A stretch of 16,123 nt of DNA from a virus (IMGVR_UViG_3300045988_123035:1-16123); one strand, 5' to 3'. Positions 1 to 16,123 are shown, counted from the first letter of the stretch. Notes: generated by a model from the sequence alone, not told the origin. Translations and numbers: made by a program.

Positions 1-49
1 GCGACCACCGAGATCTACACTCTTTCCCTACACGACGCTCTTCCGATCT
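1..49. other. Illumina TruSeq universal (P5/read-1 side) adapter remnant; synthetic, not biological
   Basis: GCGACCACCGAGATCTACACTCTTTCCCTACACGACGCTCTTCCGATCT is the 3' 49 nt of the TruSeq universal adapter. Its exact reverse complement is at 16075..16123. Confidence 0.97.
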
Positions 50-77
50 AGCGCGGACACTGTTTTCCCCAAAAAGA

Positions 78-2017: not shown

Positions 2018-2797
2018 CTACCTCATCCAATCAATAGATAAGCCTAAGTTTCCGCGGTTTCCGTACGCCATCATATTAAAGTCATTTCCATGCTCGGAAA
2101 AATCATCAAAAATTGACATAAATAATTCTTCGCAATCTGCAATGATAGCGTTATTAACATTAACAATGTGTTCACGATACATTACAAGTTCGTTCATTTT
2201 ACTGCCGCGCCATCCTTTTTCTGTCCGATGGCTAGTGTCTACAACTGATGTATTACTCTTACCTGTGTTTTTTTCAGTAACTGCTCGGCTGTTCTCTTCT
2301 GTGCTTTGCCCTCTAGTCATGCCGGACGCATAGTCTGTGCCGGAAAAATTAACTTGTGGGTTATCGCTGTTAATGCGTTGGTCATTAGCGCTACTATTGT
2401 TAGTGTCGTTCATGGCTCTGTCTGCTTGTGATGTATTGCTTCCGTCGCTCGTGTCGGTGTCGTCAAATGTCATGTTTGTATTTTCCAAAATTTGTGATAC
2501 GCTTAAATTACTGTCATACATCGCTTTGTATCTTGGCATGTTTCGTGTCAGCGTGTCATTAAGCTTGAGCTTAAAAAGACCGATTGTCTCGAATCCGATT
2601 TCGCTCATATAAAAATGGATAATAAACATACGCTCGAACTCTACGCGGCTTGTCTCGTCCTCATTGTACCATGGGTACGAAAAATCGAAAAGGTGCGGTC
2701 GTCCTGTGGCTATTTTGTCGTACGTTGTAGCATTTACATTCTTCCAGTCCGTAAAGCTTTCGATATATTCCCTAATTCTGGTCGTATATGTTGCCAT
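2018..2797 (-). CDS. Lower collar protein (phi29 gp11-like), 259 aa
   Basis: The start is taken at the internal ATG 2797 (RBS GGGGGCGGAG), which overlaps the connector gene by 26 nt. It lies directly downstream of the connector, as in phi29. The HFYMSEIGFETIGLFKLKLN..MPRY pattern recalls podophage lower-collar proteins. Confidence 0.6.
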   Translation of the reverse strand: MATYTTRIREYIESFTDWKNVNATTYDKIATGRPHLFDFSYPWYNEDETSRVEFERMFIIHFYMSEIGFETIGLFKLKLNDTLTRNMPRYKAMYDSNLSVSQILENTNMTFDDTDTSDGSNTSQADRAMNDTNNSSANDQRINSDNPQVNFSGTDYASGMTRGQSTEENSRAVTEKNTGKSNTSVVDTSHRTEKGWRGSKMNELVMYREHIVNVNNAIIADCEELFMSIFDDFSEHGNDFNMMAYGNRGNLGLSIDWMR

Positions 2798-3662
2798 TTT
2801 CTCCGCCCCCTCTCTCAAGGTTTTCTTTTCTCTCAACGCCAAGACCGCTACCGATGTAGCTCACATCAACACTAAGCCCAAAAAGGCGGTTAATCTGTTC
2901 GCAAGCGCGCTTTCGCACTCCGAGAAATGATTGGCGGTTAATGAGCGTCAAATCTGCATCTTGTTCGACCTCGCTTGTAATTAAACGCTCTTTTTTTGTA
3001 CCGTCAATGTTATTTATACCAAACTGCACGCAAAAGTCTGCAATTTCTTGTCTCATTGCTGTTGTTAAGTCTCCGAAAACGTTCGGTGGGTTTAGGTTGA
3101 GTACTTTTATATTGTCAATGTTGCTTACGCCGTCTCTGACAGAAATAAAAGGTACAAAGTCATTATACTGTTTAAAAAGGTTTTTTGTGCTTAATCTCTG
3201 GTTATCACTGCCTGCAATAATAACAGGTGTTCTTTGCGCGTAAATGTTTAAATTTCTTGTCATTCTCATATTAGCCAAACTTTCCGCATACATCTGTACA
3301 TAATCTACGCTAGGATAACCAATGGCACTATCCCAAACAATAACGCTGTTTGCTTTATTAAGAGTTTTAAAATACTGCTGTGCATATGCAAAACGCGTAT
3401 TTGGTACGCCGTAAATATCAACAGTTCCGCCAAGGTTGGTTTTCATAATTGCAAATTTTTCGATAACATCATCTTCAAAAAAGACGGCTTGCCCCCACCA
3501 GAACAAATAATCTTCTAAAATTCGCGGCGGAATTTCATCCGGCAATCCTATCCATTCAAAACGGTTCACGATCATTTCATGAAGCATATTGAAATATCGG
3601 ATATAATAATTCCGGTATTGCGGCACACTGAAATATTCCGCGTCTTTTGATTGATTTTTCAT
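2772..3662 (-). CDS. Head-tail connector / upper collar (portal) protein, phi29 gp10 family (296 aa)
   Basis: It aligns by eye with phi29 gp10. [12 protein letters not shown] matches [39 protein letters not shown] matches [39 protein letters not shown] matches [28 protein letters not shown] matches REEACEKINELYGLNVKV. RBS AAGGAG. Confidence 0.9.
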   Translation of the reverse strand: [296 protein letters not shown]

Positions 3663-3679: not shown

Positions 3680-5365
3680 TTAATTGTTTGCAAGCCCATA
3701 ATTACCGATATCATTAGTATGCCATATTGTCACACCGCGATCAAATATTGATCGTAAAATAACAAGGTAATCAAGATCAATGTTACCGCTGATTGTGCAA
3801 TTACGGGTTTTAACAAAATCCCACGCCGATCTATTGTTGATTGACGGTTGTCCGATCTCGCCTATTTTATAGCCAAACATCGTAAAATAGTCGTCAATTT
3901 TACGTGCATACTCCGCGCGAATTTGCATAGGATAATAACTAATGTGGTCGTTGCCGATAATCTTACTTGCGTTACCGCTCGATGTTGTAACATTTCCGCT
4001 CGGCTGTAAAAAATGATTAACTACTGCTTTTATACCGTCTCCGATAACATCCGACCAATCAGTGCTACTAAGGGTACTTAATGGACTAGATTTAAAAGCA
4101 TCACTCGCGGCTTGCTTTCCTGTTGCTATGGCGTTTCCAGTTCCACTTGCCGCCGCACCCAAAAATCCAAAACCCGCACCAGATAAAGCTTTTCCAACTC
4201 CGTTAAAAACTCCGGCGGCTGTGTCAACACCTTGTGATACTACGTCTCCGCCACTCATTAAAGCACTCGCTCCCGCCGTACTTGTCATCTGTGCAACATA
4301 TGCTTTGTATGCATCTGTCATTATCGCACATTTTGGATAGTCCGAAAACGTAAGCATATCCGTATAATCTTGCGCGAATCCTTTGTACTGTATAGGATAA
4401 GACACAAGCAGAGGGTTAGGTGTCATTGCTACGGTATAAGTAAAACTACAAGCGTCACTTGCAAAAAATTCGTATCTATACTCGATTCCTACTCCGTTGT
4501 TATTATTGCCATATAAAAAATTATACGGATAACAAAATAACTTTTTATTTTTTGGCACATACCCATCAATATTGTCATATTTTTTAGGCAAATTTAACTG
4601 TTTGAATTGTGTTTCTTCTGCGATAAAGCTTGTTGGCATCATAAATGCGTTTAAAATTCCGTCAATAGTACCGTTTGCGTTAGCGGCAATTAAAAATTCA
4701 TTTACGCCGTTTCCATTATCGAAAACGTTAAAAGTGATTGCAGTATACACACCATCCCTAAATTCTCCACCGTTAAAATTTCCGCTCTCGTCAAATGCGC
4801 TCGGTATGACAACGCTCATAATGTTTCTGTCACTTAATTCCGGCGCGTCATAATTCTGATCTGTCTCCTGTTTAACAATATATTCGCCTGTTTCCAATCC
4901 CTCTGGGAAAGTGTATTTACCTATAACATCATCAGACTTTTTTACAATTTGTCGCTCGATATAGCACTTATTGAGCACCATATCAAATTGACAATTTGTC
5001 CAAACGTCCATGATAAAATGCACTCTGCACGAGTTGACAGACAGCGGCTCGACACTTGTTATAAATCCATACGCCCAGTTGTCCATATATCCTACGTTTT
5101 TAAAAGCAATATAGTTCGCACTGTCTGCGTACAACTCGTTCACAGGCGCGGCAAAATCCGCGTAACCTCTTTTAACTGGCGCGGCATTATCGGTGCTATA
5201 GATTGCTTTGCTATCAACATATGCAAAAAGTTCTTCTCGGCTGTTAAAAAGTCGCACATGGTTGTAGGACGAATCCCACGGTATACCTCGGCATATCCTC
5301 ACTTGTGCAACAGGCGCTATTCCATCTACGTTTTTTTGTGTTGGCATCGGTATCATGTTATCCAT
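3680..5365 (-). CDS. Tail knob / distal tube protein, phi29 gp9 family (561 aa)
   Basis: NYIAFKNVGYMDNWAYGFITSVEP..VHFIMDVWTNCQF matches phi29 gp9 YIMFQNADYGNKWFYAFVTELEF..VHFEIDVLQTWMF. The C-terminus FGYKIGEI..FVKTRNCTISGNIDLDYLVILRSIFDRGVTIWHTNDIGNY matches [48 protein letters not shown]. The start is set at ATG 5365 (RBS AGGAAA), because the upstream 15 codons of the ORF cover a hairpin and a parS palindrome. Confidence 0.88.
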   Translation of the reverse strand: MDNMIPMPTQKNVDGIAPVAQVRICRGIPWDSSYNHVRLFNSREELFAYVDSKAIYSTDNAAPVKRGYADFAAPVNELYADSANYIAFKNVGYMDNWAYGFITSVEPLSVNSCRVHFIMDVWTNCQFDMVLNKCYIERQIVKKSDDVIGKYTFPEGLETGEYIVKQETDQNYDAPELSDRNIMSVVIPSAFDESGNFNGGEFRDGVYTAITFNVFDNGNGVNEFLIAANANGTIDGILNAFMMPTSFIAEETQFKQLNLPKKYDNIDGYVPKNKKLFCYPYNFLYGNNNNGVGIEYRYEFFASDACSFTYTVAMTPNPLLVSYPIQYKGFAQDYTDMLTFSDYPKCAIMTDAYKAYVAQMTSTAGASALMSGGDVVSQGVDTAAGVFNGVGKALSGAGFGFLGAAASGTGNAIATGKQAASDAFKSSPLSTLSSTDWSDVIGDGIKAVVNHFLQPSGNVTTSSGNASKIIGNDHISYYPMQIRAEYARKIDDYFTMFGYKIGEIGQPSINNRSAWDFVKTRNCTISGNIDLDYLVILRSIFDRGVTIWHTNDIGNYGLANN

Positions 5366-5380
5366 GCTTTCCTCATTTCT

Positions 5381-5401
5381 AGGGGAGCATTGCGCTCCCC
5401 T
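5381..5401 (-). other. GC-rich RNA stem-loop between the capsid and tail-knob cistrons
   Basis: 8-bp stem AGGGGAGC/GCTCCCCT with a 5-nt loop and no U tract. It lies 7 nt from the parS palindrome and 15 nt upstream of the tail-knob start. Confidence 0.4.
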
Positions 5402-5408
5402 CAAAATC

Positions 5409-5428
5409 AATGTTTCACGTGAAACATT
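5409..5428. promoter_or_regulatory. parS: parS-like perfect palindrome, copy 1 (20 bp; 16-bp core 5411..5426)
   Basis: AATGTTTCACGTGAAACATT. The core TGTTTCACGTGAAACA is the symmetric form of the ParB/Spo0J site TGTTNCACGTGAAACA. It abuts the capsid gene stop codon (5428..5430). Confidence 0.7.
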
Positions 5429-6705
5429 TACTGATTGACTGTAACAGTACCTGTTCCGCTGATCGTGCTGTTATATCTTGATATCGCTTTTACGGTAAGC
5501 GTTGCCGCTTTCTCGTCATTGGCAATATGCAAGATATTCGACCCCGGAATAAAACTTGTATACTGGCTTGTCGCGCCCTCTACGTCAAAATCGAGCATCT
5601 GCGGCGTGTACTGATCTGTGCCTGTTACTAAGGCTGTAACCTCAACATCAGTTCCCACATTTCCGGCGGTATCTGTAACGCTCACGGTTGTAAGTCCGAC
5701 AGTATCCGTAGTAAAAACAATGCAAGGGAAAAACGGCGAATAAGAAAACATTTCCGACATTGTGTAAAAATAATTCCACGTAAGCGCCGCACCATTTCTT
5801 GAATCGGTCAGCGTCCGGAAATTCTCGCGCACATTAAAAAATCTCATATCAAACAGCGCAAGCTTGATATTGGGGTCGTCAAACTTGTCAATGATAATTT
5901 TGCGGACATTGATGTCAACTTTATCCATATTAAAGGCTGTTGCAAGCACTTCAACATCTAACTCCGCGTCAATTTCCGGCGTAGTGATATAAAAGATTGT
6001 CTGATCGTTTGCGCAACTGTCTGCTCCGGCAATATTGTACTCGGGGTGGGGAAATTTCATCTGTCCGATGTAAGCCTTTACAAGCTTTGTCAGCTTTTTA
6101 GCATTTTCTGCACTTGCTGTAGGGTCTGCAACATTAACCGCGTACAGCTGATCTGCCGCACTCGCGCTCTCAATCAGACGTTTCATGCACAAATATTCAT
6201 CCCAATTTGCCGCTGCAAAAAGACTCTGTACTTTTGCATTGATTAAATCGCGCACACCATATTCCGACCGGAACGCTGTACGCAAGTTGTCAAAAGTGAC
6301 TGTAACCGCGTACTGGATAGCGGGTGTGATCTTGTGATACGCCGCCATGACACTTGACTGATAGTAAGCATACAGTTCTGCAACTGTTGCGAACTGGTTA
6401 AACTGCTTACCTTTTGCCATGTTGATAAAAATTTCTTCTTCTGTACCACCGTAACGCATCGGGTCTCTCTTAAGCACTCCGAGAGGATTCTCAAAAAAGA
6501 CTGTCTCGATTCTCTGCTCCATGATCTGCTCTACCAACGCATTTGCAAACGCATTTCTAAGCGGTACAATATTAAGCAAACTTTCGTAAATACTAGAGAT
6601 GTTCTCCGATGTTGCTTCGGGAATCCGGTTCTGATATTCCAGACTCTGCATAGATCTTACTGCATTTAAAATAGCTACGTTCGTAGCCGGAACTTTGTTA
6701 CCCAT
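5428..6705 (-). CDS. Major capsid protein with C-terminal Ig-like (BIG2-type) domain (425 aa)
   Basis: Strong RBS GAGGAG. The gene lies directly downstream of a small acidic scaffold-like gene, as in phi29 genes 7-8. The size and the C-terminal beta-rich segment (TVSVTDTAGNVGTDVEVTALVTG..ATLTVKAIS..GTGTVTV) resemble phi29 gp8 with its Ig-like domain. Confidence 0.75.
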   Translation of the reverse strand: MGNKVPATNVAILNAVRSMQSLEYQNRIPEATSENISSIYESLLNIVPLRNAFANALVEQIMEQRIETVFFENPLGVLKRDPMRYGGTEEEIFINMAKGKQFNQFATVAELYAYYQSSVMAAYHKITPAIQYAVTVTFDNLRTAFRSEYGVRDLINAKVQSLFAAANWDEYLCMKRLIESASAADQLYAVNVADPTASAENAKKLTKLVKAYIGQMKFPHPEYNIAGADSCANDQTIFYITTPEIDAELDVEVLATAFNMDKVDINVRKIIIDKFDDPNIKLALFDMRFFNVRENFRTLTDSRNGAALTWNYFYTMSEMFSYSPFFPCIVFTTDTVGLTTVSVTDTAGNVGTDVEVTALVTGTDQYTPQMLDFDVEGATSQYTSFIPGSNILHIANDEKAATLTVKAISRYNSTISGTGTVTVNQ

Positions 6706-6719
6706 TTTTTTCTCCTCTC

Positions 6720-7010
6720 TTACTCTGTACTGCCGTCAAAGTCAAGCATTTCCGGCGTTACATCTTCGACCACGCCAACATCTGCCTTTGGCTCTTCGAT
6801 GTCTGCTTTCGGTGTTTCCTGTCCGGCTAACATCTCGCCAAAACGCGCAATGTACTTTTCGCGCAAGCCCTCATACCGTTCCTTGTAGCCGTCATCTGTT
6901 ACATTTGCGCCGCTTCTGATGGATTCTGTAATAACATTGATTTCTTCATCCAATTCTTCCGGCGCGTCAATCTTGCCTAAGATTGCTTTTAAAGCTTCAT
7001 CTGCTGTCAT
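6720..7010 (-). CDS. Scaffolding protein (phi29 gp7-like), 96 aa
   Basis: Small, strongly acidic, helix-prone protein immediately upstream of the capsid gene. The call rests on position and composition only. Confidence 0.55.
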   Translation of the reverse strand: MTADEALKAILGKIDAPEELDEEINVITESIRSGANVTDDGYKERYEGLREKYIARFGEMLAGQETPKADIEEPKADVGVVEDVTPEMLDFDGSTE

Positions 7011-7014
7011 TTTT

Positions 7015-8124
7015 CTACCTACCTTTCCCTAAAAATGGTTTTAAATAGTATATAAACGGTGTCTTTCTTGCACTTGGAATAGGTGCTACACCGTATATAT
7101 TGATAGTACAATTTTGATAAATATTTGCATCACTTAAAATAAAGAAACGTATAACAACTCTCCGCAATGCTGTAACATTTACTTTGATATAGCAATAACC
7201 TCTTTCTTTTTTAACAAGTTCCGCACCATATGGTACATTAACTCCCCAATCATAATTTGATCTTACATTAAACCTAACAACAGTACCAACGTTTGCTCTC
7301 TGGCTATACGGTGTTACGTTAATTTCGGGGATGGGTGGCGCGGGTCTGTTTATCCCAATCTGGCATTGTGCAGTAACGCTCTGGCTATCAACCAACCAAA
7401 AGTTTACAACGCTTGTAACTTGTGCGCCGTTTGCGTTTCCGCTAACGATCAAAGCATTATCTTCTTTTGTCGCGGCTAAATACTGTCCAAGATTATAAGT
7501 CCATTCAGAGTTAGCATTAACTGTAATTCTAACGCTTCCCCCATCTATTATACTAGCACTAATAGGCTCTATTGTCAAGACTTTTATTTCCGGCGGCAAG
7601 ATTCCATGCATTTTATTATAAATCTGTTCCGAGTAATCAGCCCTAGTTTCTTGCGCGCCTATTCCTTGATCTTGCGGCTTTTCGTAGTTATGTAGTACAT
7701 AATCACTAGCGCTTCTAAAATCACTTGCATTTAATAAAACGTCTAGTGTAGAGCGGTAAGAGCCTGTTAATTCTTCTGTTGCAAAAGCAATTCCAAGTTC
7801 TAGTGCTCCTATGCTAGTTCCCATTTGTTCTTTTAGATTATATAGTCCTAATTTTCTGCCGGATGATGTCCATTGTGCAAATCCATAACCTTTTTGATCG
7901 TAGACAAAGCTATTTTTGCTATATTCCCCGCTATCAACCTTATTTGTATAATTAACACTAGGTGTCCAAGGTGGTGCAACATTACCTTGTATACAATACG
8001 GTATTATATGACTCTCTGCATACCAATTACCCATTAAAGCCGCGCGCCCGATTTCGTTGGGTATTAAACTAGCAAGCGCTAACCAAGTTTGCCTTATATA
8101 TCCATAATCAACTATAGCCGCCAT
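7015..8124 (-). CDS. Tail-associated peptidoglycan hydrolase (phage tail lysozyme-type N-domain) with two tandem beta-domains (369 aa)
   Basis: N-terminal motifs LMGNWYAES, GYGFAQWTSSGR and HNYEKP fit the phage tail lysozyme family (GNxxxES / GxGxxQWT). The C-terminal half is an internal tandem duplication. ATG 8124 overlaps the ATPase TGA (TGATG). Confidence 0.65.
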   Translation of the reverse strand: MAAIVDYGYIRQTWLALASLIPNEIGRAALMGNWYAESHIIPYCIQGNVAPPWTPSVNYTNKVDSGEYSKNSFVYDQKGYGFAQWTSSGRKLGLYNLKEQMGTSIGALELGIAFATEELTGSYRSTLDVLLNASDFRSASDYVLHNYEKPQDQGIGAQETRADYSEQIYNKMHGILPPEIKVLTIEPISASIIDGGSVRITVNANSEWTYNLGQYLAATKEDNALIVSGNANGAQVTSVVNFWLVDSQSVTAQCQIGINRPAPPIPEINVTPYSQRANVGTVVRFNVRSNYDWGVNVPYGAELVKKERGYCYIKVNVTALRRVVIRFFILSDANIYQNCTINIYGVAPIPSARKTPFIYYLKPFLGKGR

Positions 8125-9176
8125 CACATCAACCTCACACTAAGTATATCAAGCACAATATCCTTACATTTCAGATCTTTAAACCTCAATAAACCTAAGT
8201 CGTAAGACCTCTTAAGATAGTCATAGATAAAACTCTGACTACTCAACATTAAAGTTTCTGCGTTATGACTGCTCGCGTCAAACGTAAAGCGATATTTACA
8301 ACTCTGGTCAACAGTCCTGTCAATATACACAATACCTTTTTCTGGGTACTCTCTAACTGCATAACTATCTTTCCCGCAAACGAGCGTAAATATATAGCGG
8401 CTGTTTCCGCTTACGCTTTCGACAAAAGCTGTTGCATCACACATATAAATACCATCAGCACTACTAATCTGATAAGTGCTATCTTTAAAAATTATACCGA
8501 GTTTGCAAAGTTTTAGTGCATTTTGCGCGTCTTTATTAACAACAAACTGCGCAACCCATCCATGACCACGCAAAAATTTAGTGTTATCTCTTAATCTCTT
8601 ATGTATACCAAAAAAAATAAAATAGGGATTTAAAAGTGTCACATAATTGCCGAGCATATAAACGGGCACTTCCCGCACCTGTTTTCCTTTACCTCTGCAT
8701 ATCGTCCTTAATGTACTCTCAAATTTTGTCAATTCATTTTTTAAATATCCGTTATTCTCAAGGACAAATTCATCAAAAACGATAAGTTCTACGTCTTTAA
8801 ACATTGGGCTGTATTTTTTAAGTTTATCGGTGTTGTTAAAGTATACAGCATATCCAAGTAGTTTAACATTATCATCTTTATCATGTAGCATCATAGCACT
8901 AATCAAACCTTTTACAATACTTTTATTAGTTACGACTTTTCCATACTCTGGACAACTGTCCAAAATATCTTCATACATCTTTCCACTGCTCGAAATTTCG
9001 TCCTGTGTCCGATACAAAAAGGCAACCTGTTTATCATTCTGTACATTTTTCAAACTTTCAATTAAAAGTGCCGTTGTCTTTCCGGCGCTACGGTTTCCAA
9101 TAATCATTCTCAAAATTGGTTCATCATTATCTAAGTCTTTTATGTTTTTTATACTATCAAGATTATAAAAAGACAT
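8124..9176 (-). CDS. DNA encapsidation (packaging) ATPase, phi29 gp16-like (350 aa)
   Basis: Walker A GNRSAGKT and Walker B LIVFDEF, at a size typical of phi29-type small packaging ATPases. The start is set at ATG 9176 (RBS AAAGGGGGAAA), because the longer ORF (to 9233) would run through the tRNA gene. Confidence 0.85.
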   Translation of the reverse strand: MSFYNLDSIKNIKDLDNDEPILRMIIGNRSAGKTTALLIESLKNVQNDKQVAFLYRTQDEISSSGKMYEDILDSCPEYGKVVTNKSIVKGLISAMMLHDKDDNVKLLGYAVYFNNTDKLKKYSPMFKDVELIVFDEFVLENNGYLKNELTKFESTLRTICRGKGKQVREVPVYMLGNYVTLLNPYFIFFGIHKRLRDNTKFLRGHGWVAQFVVNKDAQNALKLCKLGIIFKDSTYQISSADGIYMCDATAFVESVSGNSRYIFTLVCGKDSYAVREYPEKGIVYIDRTVDQSCKYRFTFDASSHNAETLMLSSQSFIYDYLKRSYDLGLLRFKDLKCKDIVLDILSVRLM

Positions 9177-9194
9177 TACGTTTCCCCCTTTAAA

Positions 9195-9265
9195 CTGGAC
9201 TAGCGGGAATCGAACCCGCATTGACGGAGTCAAAATCCGTTGTCTTACCGTTAAACGATAGTCCC
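9195..9265 (-). tRNA. tRNA-Gln (anticodon UUG), no encoded CCA
   Basis: Hand-folded cloverleaf. The acceptor is GGGACUA/UAGUCC(A), with a G1.A72 mismatch. The D arm is GUUU-AACGGUA-AGAC. The anticodon arm is ACGGA-UUUUGAC-UCCGU, with U33 and A37. The variable loop is CAAU. The T arm is GCGGG-UUCGAUU-CCCGC. The discriminator is G. Confidence 0.85.
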
Positions 9266-9266
9266 T

Positions 9267-9292
9267 AGAAATGTTTCACGTGAAACATTTCT
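9267..9292. promoter_or_regulatory. parS: parS-like perfect palindrome, copy 2 (26 bp; 16-bp core 9272..9287)
   Basis: AGAAATGTTTCACGTGAAACATTTCT. It overlaps the holin stop codon by 1 nt and ends 1 nt before the tRNA 5' end. Confidence 0.7.
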
Positions 9293-9621
9293 TATTTCTT
9301 AGGCGCTTTCTCCAAGATCTCTCTTATCTTTTCCGGCACTAACTTTTTATTGATTCTGCTCACATTTTCGAAAATACTGCCGATTTCCATTAAAATAATA
9401 TATACACAAATACTCTCGAGCACCGGAACATTGAATCCCATATCAAGATAACTCTGTCCGTAGTCGATCAGAAAGCCAACTGCCACAATTACAATTTCGC
9501 CGAACTTGTTAAAAAGTCCGTCACGCATTACACTGCTGTTAAAATTACTGTTTTTAACAGCCATAACAATTCCGGTAATAAAATCAAGTACAATAAACAA
9601 CATTACGATAACAATACTCAT
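9292..9621 (-). CDS. Holin (phiLC3 / Phage_holin_4_1-type), 109 aa
   Basis: Three hydrophobic segments and family-typical motifs: LDFITGIVMAVKN....S, then LMEIGSIFEN, then a basic C-tail (PEKIREILEKAPKK). RBS GAGGAG. Confidence 0.85.
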   Translation of the reverse strand: MSIVIVMLFIVLDFITGIVMAVKNSNFNSSVMRDGLFNKFGEIVIVAVGFLIDYGQSYLDMGFNVPVLESICVYIILMEIGSIFENVSRINKKLVPEKIREILEKAPKK

Positions 9622-9772
9622 TTTCTCCTCTTTTCTGCGGCGGTAGCAATTAACAGAATTACCGCCGCGTTGATAGTTTTAGAGTTTCGCGGCATCGGTT
9701 CGCACCAACCACGGCGCGGAGCACGGTTTTTCCCGTTGGTTTACGCTCGCAAAAACCAATCCGGTACTACTC

Positions 9773-9844
9773 CATAGACTCCAATTACGCGGACATAGGA
9801 CATTTTTGTAAGGATTAGGAGGAATTTCGTAATTGGAGTCTATG
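9773..9844. repeat. 17-bp perfect inverted repeat with 38-nt spacer
   Basis: CATAGACTCCAATTACG (9773..9789) pairs with CGTAATTGGAGTCTATG (9828..9844). Confidence 0.9.
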
Positions 9845-9942
9845 CAATAGTACCACATAAATTGTTGTTTTATGCCATGTACGGCAAGCCATGCCGCTCC
9901 ATGCCGGTTTCGCCGTACATGCCATAAATGTCATTCTTACGC

Positions 9943-9970
9943 CGTGCAATGCCGTGGGTGGCATTGCACG
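9943..9970 (-). other. GC-rich 11-bp stem-loop just after the SSB stop codon
   Basis: CGTGCAATGCC / GGCATTGCACG with a 6-nt loop. There is no U tract on either strand, so it is not a classical terminator. Confidence 0.45.
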
Positions 9971-9976
9971 ATGATC

Positions 9977-10375
9977 TTATCTGTCGAACGGGTTGTACGG
10001 CGTAGCGGGAACAAGCTTAGAAATGTCGATACCCTTAAGGTATGCACTCTGGTACTTCTTGCCCTTATACTTGCCCTCAACAACCTTAAACGCGATTTCA
10101 ACCACTGAATCCGTTCCAATCTCTTCCGCTTTGATCGCTGTTTCATCTTCCGGTTTCTGCTCGACACCATCGAGATAGACAGGGAAGTCAAACTGGGTGT
10201 GTGCCTTTACAAGCTTTGTACCGTCATCGGACGTTTTGACCGGACAGTCAATCTCTGTGTTAAGACCCGCTTTCTCGATCAGCTCCGCCGCGGCTTCATC
10301 TGTAATCTCTACCATAATGGAAAACTTTCCGTCATTGGAAAATGTGGAATAAACTCTACCTGTTGCGTATAACAT
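9977..10375 (-). CDS. Putative single-stranded DNA-binding protein (OB-fold type), 132 aa
   Basis: The start is set at ATG 10375 (RBS AAGGAG). It is a small protein in the replication module. The alternating beta-like pattern with the C-terminal ..VVEIAFKVVEGKYKGKKYQSAYLKGIDISKL resembles phage SSBs (DUF2815-like), and the phi29 p5 analogue has a similar size. Weak evidence; inferred. Confidence 0.35.
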   Translation of the reverse strand: MLYATGRVYSTFSNDGKFSIMVEITDEAAAELIEKAGLNTEIDCPVKTSDDGTKLVKAHTQFDFPVYLDGVEQKPEDETAIKAEEIGTDSVVEIAFKVVEGKYKGKKYQSAYLKGIDISKLVPATPYNPFDR

Positions 10376-10431
10376 AACTTTTTTCTCCTTTTCTGATTTG
10401 AATTTAATTATTGGTGTGCAATGTTGCAAGC

Positions 10432-10449
10432 ATGTTTCACGTGAAACAT
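10432..10449. promoter_or_regulatory. parS: parS-like perfect palindrome, copy 3 (18 bp; core 10433..10448)
   Basis: ATGTTTCACGTGAAACAT lies in the 99-bp spacer between the acidic ORF and the SSB gene. It is flanked by direct repeats AATGTTGC (10420..10427 and 10454..10461). Confidence 0.7.
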
Positions 10450-10474
10450 TTAGAATGTTGCTCGCTTACATTCT

Positions 10475-10756
10475 TTACTTCTTTGACGCTTTGTAAGCGT
10501 CGTATTCCTCTGCCGTCATTGAGTTCTCGATGAACGTAGACAGCGGCATGAAGCGGGTTTCCTCTTTCCGGTCAACCTCGATCAGATTACCTTTTGCAAT
10601 ACCGAAAGACTCTAAAATCTCGTCTCTTTCCGCCGCTGTAGTAATCTCATGATCCCATTCTACAACATCTCCCATTTTAATACCATCTTCTGCCGATACC
10701 GTCATAATCTGGTATAATACTTTTGTTGGGATAGTTCTGGAAATTACCTTTTCCAT
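10475..10756 (-). CDS. Hypothetical acidic early protein (93 aa)
   Basis: Good RBS (GAGAGGAAA) and an intact ORF. It lies directly upstream of the putative SSB, the position of dsDNA-binding p6 in phi29. No recognisable motif. Confidence 0.6.
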   Translation of the reverse strand: MEKVISRTIPTKVLYQIMTVSAEDGIKMGDVVEWDHEITTAAERDEILESFGIAKGNLIEVDRKEETRFMPLSTFIENSMTAEEYDAYKASKK

Positions 10757-10849
10757 TTTTTGTTTCCTCTCTTTCTTTAAATAATGTAGCGAAACTGCGT
10801 GACTTGTTAGCTTGCCATCGTCAGACTGTAAGTAGCTATCTTTCCAGTG

Positions 10850-10870
10850 ACGGGAGAATGTGTCTCCCGT
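10850..10870 (-). other. Stem-loop after the 60-aa ORF
   Basis: 8-bp stem ACGGGAGA/TCTCCCGT with a 5-nt loop, starting 5 nt after the TAG at 10876..10878. There is no U tract on the minus strand. Confidence 0.35.
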
Positions 10871-10875
10871 TTCGG

Positions 10876-11058
10876 CTATATTCTAATTGAAACTGCGGTG
10901 CTTGAAAATGTAGTAACTTTATAACCACCGTATTTTAAAACTAAATCAATCGCTTTACCGAGCTTAAAATCAATCGTATCTCCACTTACTATATAGATGG
11001 TTAGTTCTGTTTCGCTATTCCAATCTAAGTTACTTGCAAAAAGTTCTGTAAATGTCAT
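10876..11058 (-). CDS. Hypothetical early protein (60 aa)
   Basis: The start is set at ATG 11058 behind the conserved leader CAAGAAAGCGAGGAAACAAAG. The longer ORF (to 11184) would span this gene's own promoter and overlap the upstream gene. Confidence 0.55.
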   Translation of the reverse strand: MTFTELFASNLDWNSETELTIYIVSGDTIDFKLGKAIDLVLKYGGYKVTTFSSTAVSIRI

Positions 11059-11119
11059 CTTTGTTTCCTCGCTTTCTTGTTTGGTTGCTTTGTTGTTTTG
11101 TATGTTCCTTACATTATCT

Positions 11120-11147
11120 ATTATACGCTTATTGACGGAAATGTCAA
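11120..11147 (-). promoter_or_regulatory. SigA-type promoter (cassette 1)
   Basis: Minus strand: TTGACA, 16 nt, TATAAT, followed by the conserved TGTAAGGA leader start. Confidence 0.7.
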
Positions 11148-11156
11148 GAAATTTTT

Positions 11157-11360
11157 CTAAATTTTTAAATTTTCTTTTAAACAATTTAGAATTGTTTCTT
11201 TTATCTCAAGGTTAGCATCTATAACTTCTGGGGTTGATAATCCAAGTCCTACTAATAAATTATATAACCATAGTCCATTATAAATCATGTGCAAGCTAAT
11301 TTTATCATCAACCACTAATTTCAACACTGCATACACAGCTTCTTCTTTGCTTATTTTCAT
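11157..11360 (-). CDS. Hypothetical early protein (67 aa)
   Basis: The ATG is preceded by the conserved leader GCACAAGAAAGTGAGGA. Hydrophobic central segment (LWLYNLLVGLGL). Confidence 0.55.
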   Translation of the reverse strand: MKISKEEAVYAVLKLVVDDKISLHMIYNGLWLYNLLVGLGLSTPEVIDANLEIKETILNCLKENLKI

Positions 11361-11409
11361 ACAATAATCCTCACTTTCTTGTGCTTTTGTTTGTTATCCT
11401 TACATGATT

Positions 11410-11439
11410 ATAATATCATGTTTATTCTATTTTTGTCAA
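11410..11439 (-). promoter_or_regulatory. SigA-type promoter with extended -10 (cassette 2)
   Basis: Minus strand: TTGACA, then 18 nt ending in TGa, then TATTAT. Near-identical to the promoter at 12049..12077. Confidence 0.65.
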
Positions 11440-11447
11440 TATAATTT

Positions 11448-11681
11448 TTAAAAATTTTGGTTCTTTTGTTCCAATTTTTTCATCAATTCGATTTCTCTCT
11501 TTTCACTAATCGTCATATATTTTTGTCGTAAATCATTGATTGCGTCACAAACTGCTTTTATGTTTGCTTCCGGTACTCTGATAGCGGCGTAAATGTACAG
11601 CTTGCAAGTATTAAAGTCGGACGGTTCGAAGATATGTGCTTCAAACATACGAGATAACTCTAAGTACACTCTTTCTCTCAT
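11448..11681 (-). CDS. Hypothetical early protein (77 aa)
   Basis: ATG 11681 behind the GCACAAGAAAGTGAGGA leader. No recognisable motif. Confidence 0.55.
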   Translation of the reverse strand: MRERVYLELSRMFEAHIFEPSDFNTCKLYIYAAIRVPEANIKAVCDAINDLRQKYMTISEKREIELMKKLEQKNQNF

Positions 11682-11725
11682 TATTATTCCTCACTTTCTT
11701 GTGCTTTGTTATCCTTACACTATGT

Positions 11726-11752
11726 ATTATATACTTATACAGTATATGCCAA
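11726..11752 (-). promoter_or_regulatory. Possible SigA-type promoter (cassette 3, degenerate)
   Basis: Minus strand: TTGGCA, 15 nt, TATAAT, then the TGTAAGGATAAC leader. The short spacer makes this the weakest of the four. Confidence 0.35.
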
Positions 11753-11758
11753 GCAAAA

Positions 11759-12001
11759 TTACAACTTATTTATATATCTTGCCGACTTGTAGTCCATGTG
11801 ACTATCTACTACTATATATGCTACTAATTCGCGAATCGGAAAATCTGTTCTTCTTAAATACCGTTCTACTCTATAGTAAGTTCTATTTCCTACAACATAA
11901 ATTTCTTCTAAAGTGTAATGATGTGTAGAATTGATAAAATGAGTGTTTCTATCTATTGCGGATTTAAGCAATTTTCTCACTGTTTCTTTTCTTATTGCCA
12001 T
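11759..12001 (-). CDS. Hypothetical basic early protein (80 aa)
   Basis: The start is set at ATG 12001 (RBS GAGGA 6 nt upstream). The GTG at 12013 in the ORF track lies inside the RBS. Confidence 0.55.
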   Translation of the reverse strand: MAIRKETVRKLLKSAIDRNTHFINSTHHYTLEEIYVVGNRTYYRVERYLRRTDFPIRELVAYIVVDSHMDYKSARYINKL

Positions 12002-12048
12002 AGTATTCCTCACTTTCTTGTGCTTGTTGTTTATTTCCTTGCATGATT

Positions 12049-12077
12049 ATAATATCATGTTTATTCTATTTTGTCAA
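12049..12077 (-). promoter_or_regulatory. SigA-type promoter with extended -10 (cassette 4)
   Basis: Minus strand: TTGACA, then 17 nt ending in TGa, then TATTAT. It starts 14 nt after the polymerase stop codon. Confidence 0.65.
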
Positions 12078-12090
12078 TAGTAATTTTAAA

Positions 12091-14238
12091 TTATTCGCAA
12101 TTATCTATAAAATTTCTGCCTATAATTTCTGAATATTCATCCGTAATCCCTAAAGTATAAGTTGTGTCTACAATCGCAATGTTTGACGCTGTTGTAAACG
12201 TTGACTTTTTACCCATATAATCTGTTATTGTTATCGAATGTATGTTAGATTCATTAAAATAAGAAACTGTGCGTCCAGAATCAATAAAAAGCTTTCCAAT
12301 TTTAAAATCACTTATGCCGTTTCCGCGCTCTAACTCTGCCGCTCCTTTTTGTTTTGATAGACCAGATACAGTAACATGTAACTTGTTATCTTTGCTATCT
12401 ATGTATGCGTACTTTTTTGCACCTAGCGTCTTAAATTTTTTATAATTACCGTCGTCATCCCATATCCCTAAATAAAAACGCGTTGCAGTACCATCTTCAT
12501 TTTGGCGATCTGCATAATTGCGATAACGTTGTTTTTTTGCTAATAAGTAATCATTCCGGTCTTTAAAGCTTTGTAAATGCTGTTTTCCTATGAATTTTAC
12601 GCTATCAGTGTCGGCGTAGACAAAATCCCACCCAACAGCATCAATCATTTTTTGCAATTCCCATCTTGCATTAGCTGTAATGTACACTCCCCATTGATAG
12701 AGTAAAAACGAATTTTTTGAAGCTGTATAACTAGCTATTGATTCTAACAAATCCGGTGTAACTTTTGTCCACTCTCCGTCTGTGTAAACTATTTCATCAT
12801 GGCATATGTCTGTAACCATAGTACCAAAAACAGAGTTTAAGCTGTTTTTGCTTTTCATGTACTCGTATTCTTTCCCCGCTACATCCTTAAGTTGAGTTTT
12901 TTTGTCGTAAAACTCTAACATAGTGCTTACTATTGGTGCTGGCAAATAATCTTTTTTCGCCATGTAACCGCGTATCCACTCTATATCCTCAAAATGATAT
13001 TGATTGCAGATAATAATAAAGTCTAGTTCCGTGCAAGCATACGTTACCCATTCAGCCGATAACACGCGCCCGTTGTCGTTTATATACTCTTTACTAAATG
13101 ACGTACAATGCGCAAAGTCTATATAAGGCACTGTAACATCATCATGTACTGTTATAGTCTTAAATGTTACATGCATAATGATAGCGTTTTGTTTTTTGTT
13201 ACAATCAGATAATAATTGTGTAAAGTTTTTTGGTGTATACTCTGTAAACGGTGTCATAGGGTACAAATCAGAGCATATACATGATGGATAACTTGACACT
13301 CTATCCATGCTGTATACATTTTCAATTATTGCGTCCGCATAATATCTACTGGCATGTGTGTTACCTCCGCGAAAAGCTTTCCGCAATAATGTATAAACTT
13401 CCGGTGTAGGCATAAGAGTTTCAAACAATTCTCTATAATTCTTGTCCTCTCTGCAAGCTTTGCGCATTTCACGACGCACGTATCCGGTCGATGTTAGAGG
13501 TATTGTTGCTAATGTATCATTGTAATCATCCATTTTTGACAGTATACATTCCTCAAGTCCTTTTACATCATTATAGTCATATGCTAACTCTGTTTTAGTT
13601 TGCGGTGTATCTGGCGTACGCACTTTTTTATAATCATATCTATCTTGTAGCTTATAATGTACACAAAATTTTGAATTTTCACAAAATTTTGCTAAACTCA
13701 TGTTTGATAAAAAATAACTACACCTAAATTCAAAATGCGGAAATGTTTCACGTGAAACATTCAATTTGTTTATTGTTTTTAAATAATCTGACTTTAAACA
13801 GGCATTAAATTTAATGACCTTGTGCGATTCACGCGCAAAAAGTGATTCTATATATAAAAAATCCTTTACAAACATAAATTCATAAGCTAAATTATGTACA
13901 TAAATGACTAATTGTTTTGACGCTGATAATTCTAGGTATTCTCCTAGTTTACTTAAAAACATACTGAATTCTTCCCACCGTCTACCAAAACAAACATTCC
14001 CTTTGTAACAAAACTGCCAATGATACATAAATGCATAAGGTTTTTCACTGTTTATTGTTGTAGATTCTATATCAAATGTTGCAGGGCTATCTATATAAGC
14101 AATAGCCCTTTTGCCTTTTTTTCTAACTGTAGTATAATTCCAATTTATTACGTTGTATGGATAATCGTATACTGTATAAACTGTTTCATTTTTTGTATAT
14201 TCTTTCCCGTTTTTTGTATAAAATGTTTGTATTACCAT
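12091..14238 (-). CDS. Family B DNA polymerase, protein-primed type (715 aa)
   Basis: Exonuclease motifs: Exo I FDIEST, Exo II VHNLAYEF, Exo III YDYNDVKGL. Polymerase motifs: motif A DRVSSYP (DxxSLYP), motif B KNSLNSVFG (KxxxNSxYG), motif C YADTDS (YxDTDS), and KxY GAKKYAY. It sits next to a small basic ORF in a genome with ITRs. Confidence 0.95.
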   Translation of the reverse strand: MVIQTFYTKNGKEYTKNETVYTVYDYPYNVINWNYTTVRKKGKRAIAYIDSPATFDIESTTINSEKPYAFMYHWQFCYKGNVCFGRRWEEFSMFLSKLGEYLELSASKQLVIYVHNLAYEFMFVKDFLYIESLFARESHKVIKFNACLKSDYLKTINKLNVSRETFPHFEFRCSYFLSNMSLAKFCENSKFCVHYKLQDRYDYKKVRTPDTPQTKTELAYDYNDVKGLEECILSKMDDYNDTLATIPLTSTGYVRREMRKACREDKNYRELFETLMPTPEVYTLLRKAFRGGNTHASRYYADAIIENVYSMDRVSSYPSCICSDLYPMTPFTEYTPKNFTQLLSDCNKKQNAIIMHVTFKTITVHDDVTVPYIDFAHCTSFSKEYINDNGRVLSAEWVTYACTELDFIIICNQYHFEDIEWIRGYMAKKDYLPAPIVSTMLEFYDKKTQLKDVAGKEYEYMKSKNSLNSVFGTMVTDICHDEIVYTDGEWTKVTPDLLESIASYTASKNSFLLYQWGVYITANARWELQKMIDAVGWDFVYADTDSVKFIGKQHLQSFKDRNDYLLAKKQRYRNYADRQNEDGTATRFYLGIWDDDGNYKKFKTLGAKKYAYIDSKDNKLHVTVSGLSKQKGAAELERGNGISDFKIGKLFIDSGRTVSYFNESNIHSITITDYMGKKSTFTTASNIAIVDTTYTLGITDEYSEIIGRNFIDNCE
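13742..13761. promoter_or_regulatory. parS: parS-like perfect palindrome, copy 4 (20 bp; core 13744..13759), inside the polymerase ORF
   Basis: AATGTTTCACGTGAAACATT. It is read in frame as N160-V-S-R-E-T-F166 of the polymerase. Confidence 0.7.
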
Positions 14239-14729
14239 AGACTTTTACCTTTTATATACGTGTGCATTGCCGAACTATATTCCTCTAGTTCTAACTTTAT
14301 TTCGTTCGCTGATTTACCCTCTTTGTATAGTAGATCGTATATTTCTATAATATCTTCTGATGGATTGCGCATTTTTAAACTTTTATACTCTTGAGAGTGT
14401 AAAAATGCGTAGAAATCTTGATCAGTTAGCAACTCTTCCGATATTCCTAAATTTCTAAGTGCTTGTGTTCTTTCTTGCCTTATTTCTCTTATCCCTGTTA
14501 ATGTATGACTTCTTGCTGTCACAAATCGCACTAACTTCAAATATGCACGCTGATTATACTTATCTGGGTTCCATTCATCCCTTTTACCTAGTACATTCAG
14601 TACACTTTCTTTCTTATATCCAGCTTTTTCAATCCGCGCTTTTTGCTTGTTAGCAAGCGGCGCTAACTTTTTGTACATGTCGCGCCGCTCTTTTCCACGC
14701 AAAGATAAGAGATAATCTTTGTTATACAT
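14232..14729 (-). CDS. Candidate terminal protein (165 aa from the first ATG; a TTG at 14750 would give 172 aa)
   Basis: It lies immediately upstream of the polymerase and is translationally coupled to it (ATGGTAA overlap), as TP is in phi29-like phages. The N-terminus is basic (RGKERRDMYKKLAPLANKQKARIEKAGYKK) and the C-terminus is Ser/Thr/Tyr-rich. No sequence motif is diagnostic. Confidence 0.4.
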   Translation of the reverse strand: MYNKDYLLSLRGKERRDMYKKLAPLANKQKARIEKAGYKKESVLNVLGKRDEWNPDKYNQRAYLKLVRFVTARSHTLTGIREIRQERTQALRNLGISEELLTDQDFYAFLHSQEYKSLKMRNPSEDIIEIYDLLYKEGKSANEIKLELEEYSSAMHTYIKGKSLW

Positions 14730-14982
14730 TGCGCAAATGCTCGGATGCAAACGCCCAAGCTATGCGTTCGTCAATAATTTTTATAGCCCTGTCTAAGTCA
14801 AAATCGTATCTCTCGATAACTACTGTCACTAATTTTACCGTTTTGTAATTAACGCAAACGGCAAATGTTAAGCCTATAGACCCGTCATCATAAGGGCAAA
14901 TGCTGTCTAGTAATACATTTTCCCATTTTGTGCGCACTCTATAAGCAATAGCTTTTTCCTTATACTCTTGTAATTTTGTCAT
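14722..14982 (-). CDS. Hypothetical early protein (86 aa)
   Basis: RBS GGAGGG 6 nt upstream of the ATG, and an intact ORF between the amidase and the TP candidate. Confidence 0.6.
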   Translation of the reverse strand: MTKLQEYKEKAIAYRVRTKWENVLLDSICPYDDGSIGLTFAVCVNYKTVKLVTVVIERYDFDLDRAIKIIDERIAWAFASEHLRNV

Positions 14983-14984
14983 AA

Positions 14985-15707
14985 TTATCCCTCCGTTATA
15001 ATAGCTTTAAATCCGGCACTTTCAAGCGCTACTAACAAATTATGTGCATTTTCGATATTGTGAAAAGCTCCTTTTTGATCGAGCACAGATACACGATAGA
15101 TCTTAGATTCATCAATCTTTTCGCTTGACACGTCCAATTCATCATTCTTAGCTTCCTCCTCTGCTCTCGGTTCGCATATACACCGTGTTCCTGTGATGCC
15201 GTAAACGATTGCTGCTGCCATTTCATGCGGATTGTAAAAAACAATATCTTTTTTCGAATTGACAAAACAACATTCGATAAGCATCGCGGGCGCTTTTGTC
15301 CGGCGTAAAAAGCCTAGCTTCTTGTTGGTTTTTATGCCCCTGTTCTTAAACCCCAACGAACAAATCGCATTAAGCACATTGCCAGCGTAAACACTTGCTT
15401 TCGAGTTCTCGTCATAAATATATACCTCTGTTCCATTAGCTTCTGAATTGGCGGCAGAATTAAAGTGGATTGAAATATCTAAATCAACCTTGTGTTCGTT
15501 GCATTTATTGATAATACGGGTTAAAACATTAGTTTGAGATATTCCGTCTTCCACCGTGCAATCATAGACTGTGTGACCCATTCTGCGCAACTCGTCAACC
15601 ACAAGTTCTTTTACACGCCTATTCTCGATAGATTCAGAGATAAGCCCTACAGCACCGCAAGCTACTTTTCCGTGCGGGTTATGACCCGCGTGTACATTGA
15701 TTACCAT
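14985..15707 (-). CDS. Endolysin: N-acetylmuramoyl-L-alanine amidase (Amidase_3, CD27L-like) with SPOR-like C-terminal domain (240 aa)
   Basis: INVHAGHN...GA.G, DISIHFNSA..NGTEVYIY, FKNRGIK and PAMLIECCFVNSKKD match the pattern of clostridial phage Amidase_3 endolysins. The C-terminus YRVSVLDQKGAFHNIENAHNLLVALESAGFKAII resembles a SPOR repeat. Confidence 0.88.
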   Translation of the reverse strand: MVINVHAGHNPHGKVACGAVGLISESIENRRVKELVVDELRRMGHTVYDCTVEDGISQTNVLTRIINKCNEHKVDLDISIHFNSAANSEANGTEVYIYDENSKASVYAGNVLNAICSLGFKNRGIKTNKKLGFLRRTKAPAMLIECCFVNSKKDIVFYNPHEMAAAIVYGITGTRCICEPRAEEEAKNDELDVSSEKIDESKIYRVSVLDQKGAFHNIENAHNLLVALESAGFKAIITEG

Positions 15708-15780: not shown

Positions 15781-15802
15781 CCAGAACTTTTGTTCATGTA
15801 TG

Positions 15803-16074
15803 AGTTATCCACATCGAACAAGTGTTCGTGCTAGACGGACTAATGGTGTCCGTCTACCGCGGACACTGTTTTTTCGTGTTGTGTGAACAACTTTGAAAAC
15901 TCGTTGAATTGTCTGAAAACTTAAAAATCAATATGCATTATGCACAAAGATTTAGTCGATCTTTGTGCATTTTTACTATTGACAAATTGGAATAGATCAA
16001 CTTTTAGGTAGCGAATTTAACATCTGATTTATCGAACGTATGTTTGTCTTTTTGGGGAAAACAGTGTCCGCGCT
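15803..16074. repeat. Right inverted terminal repeat (272 bp)
   Basis: Exact reverse complement of 50..321. It carries mirror copies of the hairpins/terminators (facing outward on the plus strand) and of the LexA-like boxes. Confidence 0.95.
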
Positions 16075-16123
16075 AGATCGGAAGAGCGTCGTGTAGGGAA
16101 AGAGTGTAGATCTCGGTGGTCGC
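16075..16123. other. Illumina TruSeq P5 adapter remnant (reverse complement); synthetic
   Basis: AGATCGGAAGAGCGTCGTGTAGGGAAAGAGTGTAGATCTCGGTGGTCGC, which is the A-tail base plus the adapter read-through sequence. Confidence 0.97.

Follow-up and report, generated by a model that had tools for sequence, protein, structure and literature searches.

The plasmid-prophages P1 and N15 and the mycobacteriophages with parABS systems are temperate, and they bring with them their own ParA and ParB together with private centromere sequences. For the Bacillus subtilis phage phi29, five parS sites and a Spo0J-dependent segregation of the genome into the prespore have been described (Meijer et al., as summarized in PMC2731898). 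The chromosomal parS site itself has the consensus TGTTNCACGTGAAACA (PMC7022226), and gut Clostridia possess ParABS with clusters of TGTTTCACGTGAAACA close to the origin, this string having been detected with up to two mismatches (PMC10197239). Here we consider a stretch of viral DNA of 16,123 nucleotides (IMGVR_UViG_3300045988_123035:1-16123; ‘the window’ refers to the whole of it), from a phi29-like podophage, which carries four perfect copies of parS. It seems to us fairly probable, from sequence comparison, that the four are genuine chromosomal-type parS sites and that at least three of them are kept by selection so that host ParB/Spo0J loads on the phage DNA.

The 18-mer ATGTTTCACGTGAAACAT occurs four times in the window with no mismatch (s1 to s4; Table 1), against a chance expectation of 0.02 copies; none of 200 shuffles reached four. 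There is no further copy in the window at up to three mismatches, and all four occurrences of CACGTG lie within the sites. When the flanks are read, palindromy extends over 20, 26, 18 and 20 bp at s1, s2, s3 and s4, respectively. The 16-bp core is in every case TGTTTCACGTGAAACA, the fully symmetric form of parS, and the window sites are four perfect matches to the 16-bp palindrome TGTTNCACGTGAAACA. A preliminary description of the window had reported the four copies, their palindromes and the absence of CACGTG elsewhere, and had identified the core as chromosomal parS, all of which is borne out. It had also placed three sites at gene junctions and one inside the polymerase open reading frame (ORF), and this is correct, but its label of single-stranded DNA-binding protein (SSB) for the gene beside s3 could not be verified, the 150-residue ORF in question having no match in Pfam or PHROGs. 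Comparison of the 20 ORFs with Pfam and PHROGs gave no family match to ParA, ParB, ParBc, an integrase or a repressor, as the preliminary description had maintained, nor was a phage-borne parA/parB adjoining a centromere, of the P1/N15 type, found in that comparison. The window has in common with phi29 the combination of a protein-primed podophage, several parS sites and no par genes of its own. It should be noted that s3 is nested asymmetrically within a conserved outer inverted repeat, GCAAGC...GCTTGC (window 10417-10464), and that ATGTTGC motifs resembling parS half-sites flank it in the same interval.

Close relatives were found in IMG/VR as 36 contigs with capsid proteins 95–99% identical to that of the window, and 27 near-full-length genomes were aligned with it at an overall identity of 82%. 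In these 27 relatives the core of s3 is conserved at 100% (27/27) and is the best-conserved 16-mer of the genome; the core of s2 is conserved at 99.8% (top 0.2% of all 16-mers) and that of s4 at 98.4% (top 1%), compared with 77–89% for the 30-nt flanks around the three. The two best-conserved sites, s2 and s3, lie in the early/late boundary region. s2 is unchanged even where the neighbouring downstream gene differs, and s4 is kept despite indels in its flanks. The codons that make up s4, GTT TCA CGT GAA ACA, are identical in 20 of the 27 relatives, and the site is conserved at its synonymous positions as well. Among the 20 are, without exception, the eight members of a polymerase lineage of 73% amino acid identity; where a residue is conserved in that lineage, its codon is identical in only 52% of cases, which gives 0.52^5, or about 0.04, for five such codons in that lineage alone. 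The alignment indicates that s2, s3 and s4 are under purifying selection. The core of s1, between the capsid and tail genes, is conserved at 85%, which is the value of the median 16-mer, and fails the same test of constraint. It is an indel polymorphism, in which a segment of ~23 nt is absent from ~10 genomes, degenerate in ~12 and perfect in a few, and s1 is under no constraint. The expectation in the preliminary description that the sites should recur in relatives holds for s2 to s4, and for the motif in related phages; it does not hold for s1, which is absent or degenerate in most relatives. In several of the close relatives the tRNA-Gln beside s2 is swapped for a different sequence.

It could be supposed that the sites act as RNA or single-stranded DNA (ssDNA) hairpins, at transcript 3' ends, in processing or stability, or in displaced single strands, and that the likeness to parS is incidental. 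Three of the four lie at gene junctions right behind stop codons, s2 is predicted to fold at -12.8 kcal/mol (z = -3.4), some degenerate s1 variants retain the stem, and 59 of the 91 distinct parS sites in phi29-like genomes are intergenic, though ~87% of the DNA is coding. The last point is to be expected of any 16-bp palindrome, because such a sequence is most easily fitted between genes without disrupting codons. In the alignment of close relatives, the invariant feature at the sites is the sequence itself, the loop ACGT included, and covariation or compensatory change is absent, whereas a GC-rich hairpin nearby, behind the capsid gene, does covary. This hairpin (GGGGAGC-GCAAT-GCTCCCC, window 5379-5397, minus strand) lies directly downstream of the capsid gene and s1, occurs in every relative, with compensatory changes in variants such as GGGGGC...GCCCCC, and probably forms the actual 3' hairpin of the capsid RNA. 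Furthermore, s4 is inside an ORF, there is no U-tract on the coding strand, and no intrinsic terminator is predicted on the minus strand at any of the four sites, the sole terminator-like prediction being on the non-coding strand. The folds of s1, s3 and s4 are no better than those of shuffles (z = -0.7 to -1.8), and unrelated phages have the very same 16-mer, which is also the host consensus. In view of the invariance, the site within an ORF, the missing U-tract and the shuffle-level folds we reject a terminator or RNA hairpin as the main explanation, and we regard hairpins of any of these kinds as very unlikely to account for the sites. Compensatory (wobble-keeping) changes at the degenerate s1 copies were also considered; the events are too few and are not independent, and no conclusion is drawn from them.

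The motif is not confined to close relatives. Eighty more distant IMG/VR loci were fetched by PolB profile, blind to parS; 38 of them contain a perfect parS and 46 a site with at most one mismatch, so that a perfect site is present in about half of the sampled gut phi29-like podophages. The positions differ between clades of these relatives. A second clade (PolB ~43% identical, genomes ~16 kb) has two conserved sites at other positions, the first in the aligned polymerase region, ~14 nt from where it begins, and the second ~3.4 kb downstream, while in other groups parS is found near the left end or at different junctions. Among still more distant contigs, from species genomes and metagenome-assembled genomes (MAGs), parS occurs in 17 of 80. 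In the reverse direction, 27 phi29-like phages are among the first 120 stretches of IMG/VR in which a perfect parS is present. By our own calculation a given 16-mer is expected ~3 x 10^-6 times per 14 kb; set against the observed frequencies, this requires repeated gain and retention. In two of the 17 more distant contigs, L268 (sites at 22 and 13931) and L275 (38 and 11249), parS lies within both inverted terminal repeats, ~40 nt or less from the ends.

When 50,697 phage records were surveyed by blastn, 478 gave parS-like matches; ~0.5 perfect sites would be expected by chance in the whole database (own calculation). Prominent among the 478 are phages of Listeria, Clostridium, Microbacterium, Bacillus, Arthrobacter, Gordonia, Pseudomonas and Lactobacillus, together with Microviridae; no enterobacterial group is among the ten largest. 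The borrowing of host parS may extend to ssDNA phages. The inovirus bajarodino virus 72 (PQ006098.1, 5,843 nt, from rodent faeces) has perfect parS at 712, 1182, 2767, 4108 and 5764, three of the five directly after stop codons, and there are matches in the gut Microviridae records MG945524, HQ264138 and MG945849.

Seventeen cultured phi29-like phages were also checked. phi29 itself has four copies of TGTTTCACGTGGAACA, plus a weaker fifth, our scan of its genome recovering as that sequence four of the five reported sites. Two parS sites are present in B103 (B. subtilis), one with a single mismatch in DK3 (B. cereus), and one each in CH17P1 (Hungatella), CS229P2 (C. symbiosum) and the Clostridium phage HM2, the last of these perfect. 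phiCP7R (C. perfringens) carries four perfect and three one-mismatch sites, all in four gene junctions. None was found in GA-1 (Bacillus), 44AHJD (Staphylococcus), C1 and Cp-1 (Streptococcus), asccphi28 (Lactococcus), BP1 (Bifidobacterium) or Thatch (Curtobacterium), nor, even at four mismatches, in astrithr (Salmonella). The last serves as a negative control, because Enterobacteriaceae lack par genes (PMC7022226). Athos (Enterococcus) has one perfect and one one-mismatch site, and AD70P3 (Amedibacillus) one site with one mismatch. Counting sites with at most one mismatch, seven of the eight phages from spore-forming lineages have parS, as against two of the nine others (one-sided hypergeometric p ~0.012 by our own calculation, for a small sample uncorrected for phylogeny). 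The trait tracks spore-forming Firmicute hosts, though not exclusively; a strict association is weakened by Athos, the inovirus and the phages of Listeria, Lactobacillus and actinobacteria. The sites of phiCP7R (NC_017980; 5096/5122, 8130/8155, 10233 and 12108/12133) are mostly in pairs ~25 bp apart; the genome paper of this phage (PMC3362512) makes no mention of parS sites, and every C. perfringens podophage listed has five to seven. In Athos (LR990834), which infects a non-spore-forming host, the perfect site (4788) is at the early/late boundary and the one-mismatch site (1252) in a p6-like gene.

This breadth bears on another explanation, namely that the palindrome is the operator of a phage-encoded regulator, a small early protein that binds it and so times gene expression. 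The window does have ~9 small ORFs without any detectable family in Pfam or PHROGs, and the position of s2 and s3 in the early/late boundary region would suit such a role. Against this, the same 16-mer is common to phages with unrelated early genes (phi29, phiCP7R, Athos and the inovirus) and is missing from relatives whose hosts lack parS or use a different one; moreover, no site overlaps a strong promoter and no helix-turn-helix or ParB-like domain was detected. We give an operator next to no weight.

We return to the loading of host ParB, which is argued from the identity to the parS consensus, the sequence constraint, the repeated acquisition of the motif at different positions and the lack of detectable phage par genes; for ParB binding, spreading and the biological outcome, we infer by analogy with phi29 and with ParB biology. 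Host ParB dimers would nucleate at the sites and, as clamps that bind cytidine triphosphate (CTP), spread along the linear genome of 16 kb. The partition complex so formed would tie the phage DNA to the host apparatus for origin segregation (ParA, SMC and polar anchoring), and where infection is not immediately productive the genome might be carried into daughter cells or into the forespore. The outcome would be a state of persistence and dispersal, plasmid-like or spore-borne, for a phage without lysogeny genes, such as has been demonstrated for phi29. The retention of ParB clamps on so short a linear genome, an idea put forward in the preliminary description, is speculation. Its further suggestion, that ParB acts as a roadblock which throttles expression, is without support; loss of Spo0J in B. 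subtilis left the expression of parS-adjacent genes unchanged (PMC7022226).

The same binding might serve the opposite end. The sites could be a sink that titrates ParB off the host chromosome, which would disturb the segregation of origins, the loading of SMC or control by Soj/DnaA and thereby block or delay sporulation or division in favour of lytic growth. Four sites per genome in many copies would far outnumber the 1–10 sites of the host; the window has ~1 site per 4 kb, and 1–10 per chromosome is the figure for gut bacteria (PMC10197239). Loss of spo0J blocks sporulation via Soj (PMC7022226), phages of non-sporulating hosts carry parS too, and the lack of Spo0A boxes suggests that a deferral of lysis is not built in. 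On the other hand, experiments with phi29, in the account given in PMC2731898, point to prespore segregation, and many relatives manage with one or two sites, which is weak for titration. The sequence by itself does not distinguish a sink from partitioning by host ParB; we think a sink unlikely.

Several observations weigh against partitioning by host ParB. The hundreds of genome copies made in a productive burst would titrate ParB and not be partitioned. s1 fails the test of constraint. Perfect sites are present in the Enterococcus phage Athos, which is phi29-like, and in a gut inovirus as well, and a spore-specific role is accordingly not required; spore entrapment is not the sole possible use of the sites. 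The second arm of the phi29 strategy consists of Spo0A boxes (TGTCGAA) at early and late promoters, which suppress the lytic cycle and are essential for its deferral. They are not enriched in the window, with three (at 1860, 8418 and 9982) against 2.2 expected, and the strong promoters (15780, 12077, 11439 and 11147) have none nearby; therefore we do not claim the full phi29 strategy. The link to a host is weak, with an endolysin match to Lachnospiraceae of only 54% identity, and a PolB-profile scan of 185,579 species genomes found no close relative of the phage.

The host is nevertheless probably a gut member of the Clostridia, similar to Lachnospiraceae. The best chromosomal homologue of the endolysin is from a Lachnospiraceae bacterium and its best phage homologues are from Anaerostipes and Dorea phages, and the nearest cultured relatives of the capsid infect Hungatella and C. 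symbiosum. Close relatives are common in public gut metagenomes, with amidase clusters of 140–564 member sequences; those sourced from NCBI are whole-metagenome contigs. The matches that the PolB profile did give in species genomes were set aside, being distant (at most 41% identity) and on MAG contigs whose bins have an implausibly mixed taxonomy. No relative was found among the plasmids of PLSDB.

A wider proposal can be made only tentatively, and we hold it to be possible but doubtful: that borrowing of the host centromere is a widespread and repeatedly evolved lifestyle of small ‘virulent’ phages, which would exist as ParB-partitioned episomes and, in Clostridia, be spore-borne between human hosts. 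If this were true, the ParB-partitioned condition would add a third state to lysis and lysogeny. Should host ParB indeed partition these genomes, many abundant gut podophages that are at present classed as strictly virulent would possess a carrier state that is inherited or borne by spores, which would help to explain their persistence and their spread from person to person with spore-forming Clostridia. The matter is relevant to phage therapy against C. perfringens, given the parS sites of its podophages. In addition, the retention of ParB-CTP sliding clamps could naturally be examined on short linear DNA whose ends are capped by protein. The question is directly testable in cultured phage–host pairs.

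The window is taken to be a complete linear phi29-like podophage genome of ~16.0 kb because inverted terminal repeats of ~275 nt lie under adapter at both ends. A perfect inverted repeat of 325 nt joins the two ends (1-325 / 15799-16123), but this includes Illumina adapter in the outer ~50 nt of each (window 1-50 and 16074-16123). The adapter was also all that a near-identity search in cultured phages matched, and its 100% hits to unrelated phage records are spurious. Every long ORF is read from the minus strand and the gene set is of phi29 type, with Pfam matches to Phi29_MCP, phi29_gp9, Phage_connector, Podovirus_Gp16 and DNA_pol_B_2 (Table 1). PolB is 45% identical to that of Clostridium phage HM2, and the phage is Guelinviridae-like. 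An upstream module with near-consensus sigma-70 promoters and a ribosome-binding site is repeated in three copies ~320 nt apart (11362-11456, 11682-11706 and 12001-12095), each preceding one of three small early ORFs. Between s2 and s3, the gap of 355 nt that separates the 150-residue ORF from the holin gene (window 9622-9976, minus strand) is a candidate for a conserved non-coding RNA with a high degree of structure. Its minimum free energy is -144 kcal/mol (z = -8.3), and RNAalifold with 10 relatives gives 95 pairs, six with compensatory double changes. It has no match to an Rfam family, the phi29 packaging RNA (pRNA) included; it could be a pRNA-like packaging RNA, and the 59-residue ORF inside it (9679-9858) is probably spurious.

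Table 1. Positions of the parS sites and of the annotated genes in the window.
Feature	Position	Strand	Context or match
parS s1	5410..5427 (core 5411-5426)		adjoins capsid stop, precedes tail-knob gene; perfect match; variable copy
parS s2	9271..9288 (core 9272-9287)		between holin stop (9292) and tRNA-Gln; perfect match; 26-bp palindrome 9267-9292
parS s3	10432..10449 (core 10433-10448)		~95-nt spacer between 93-residue acidic ORF (stop 10475) and 150-residue ORF; perfect match
parS s4	13743..13760 (core 13744-13759)		inside PolB ORF, codons 161-165 (V-S-R-E-T); perfect match
Lower collar	2018-2842	-	
gp10 connector	2772-3662	-	
gp9-type tail knob	3680-5410	-	
Capsid	5428-6705	-	Phi29_MCP
Tail lysozyme	7015-8127	-	
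gp16-type packaging ATPase	8124-9233	-	
tRNA-Gln (one only)	9195-9265		
Holin	9292-9621	-	
PolB (protein-primed)	12091-14238	-	DNA_pol_B_2
Candidate terminal protein	14232-14750	-	by position alone; no family match
Amidase_3 endolysin	14985-15707	-	SPOR-like C-terminus

The kind of system to which the window would belong is already known from phi29, Spo0J and parS, and the phi29 precedent cited in the preliminary description is a real one. What appears to be new is that perfect, conserved parS is present in a different podophage family, from gut Clostridia, and that the trait is so broadly distributed; searches of literature with incomplete coverage gave no account of parS in gut podophages or in those of Clostridium, and an earlier description may exist. 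Both phi29 and the phage described here are terminal-protein-primed podophages without par genes, with several chromosomal-type parS sites, partly inside ORFs and partly at junctions; in phi29 these act through host ParB/Spo0J, according to the summary in PMC2731898. The two differ in that each of the four sites of the window is the perfect, fully symmetric 16-mer, set in an 18-mer common to all, and the four span the central 8 kb, whereas those of phi29 are in the right half of its genome. Detectable Spo0A boxes are lacking here, and family and host class are different, the present phage, known from sequence alone, being Guelinviridae-like with a host probably among the gut Clostridia. In comparison with the chromosomal parS/ParABS of Firmicutes, the 16-bp sequence is identical (PMC7022226, PMC10197239), but here it stands in a linear viral genome of 16 kb whose ends are capped by protein, away from oriC, at the density already mentioned and with no parAB operon alongside. 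The likely purpose is the one served by the parABS of P1, N15 and the mycobacteriophages, that is, stable extrachromosomal inheritance through ParB–parS, with the difference that the phage encodes neither ParA nor ParB and uses the centromere sequence of its host. The C. perfringens podophages phiCP7R, phiCPV4, phiZP2, CPS2 and the CPQ series (Guelinviridae) are cultured relatives with 5–7 parS each, although they are distant kin of the window phage and their sites are often paired ~25 bp apart. Finally, phi6423, a linear phage of 16.8 kb, is stably carried by C. beijerinckii DSM6423 (PMC5894183), and a review of the phi29-like phages places it together with HM2 (PMC11476376); the carriage of phi6423 is a documented example of such phages persisting as episomes.

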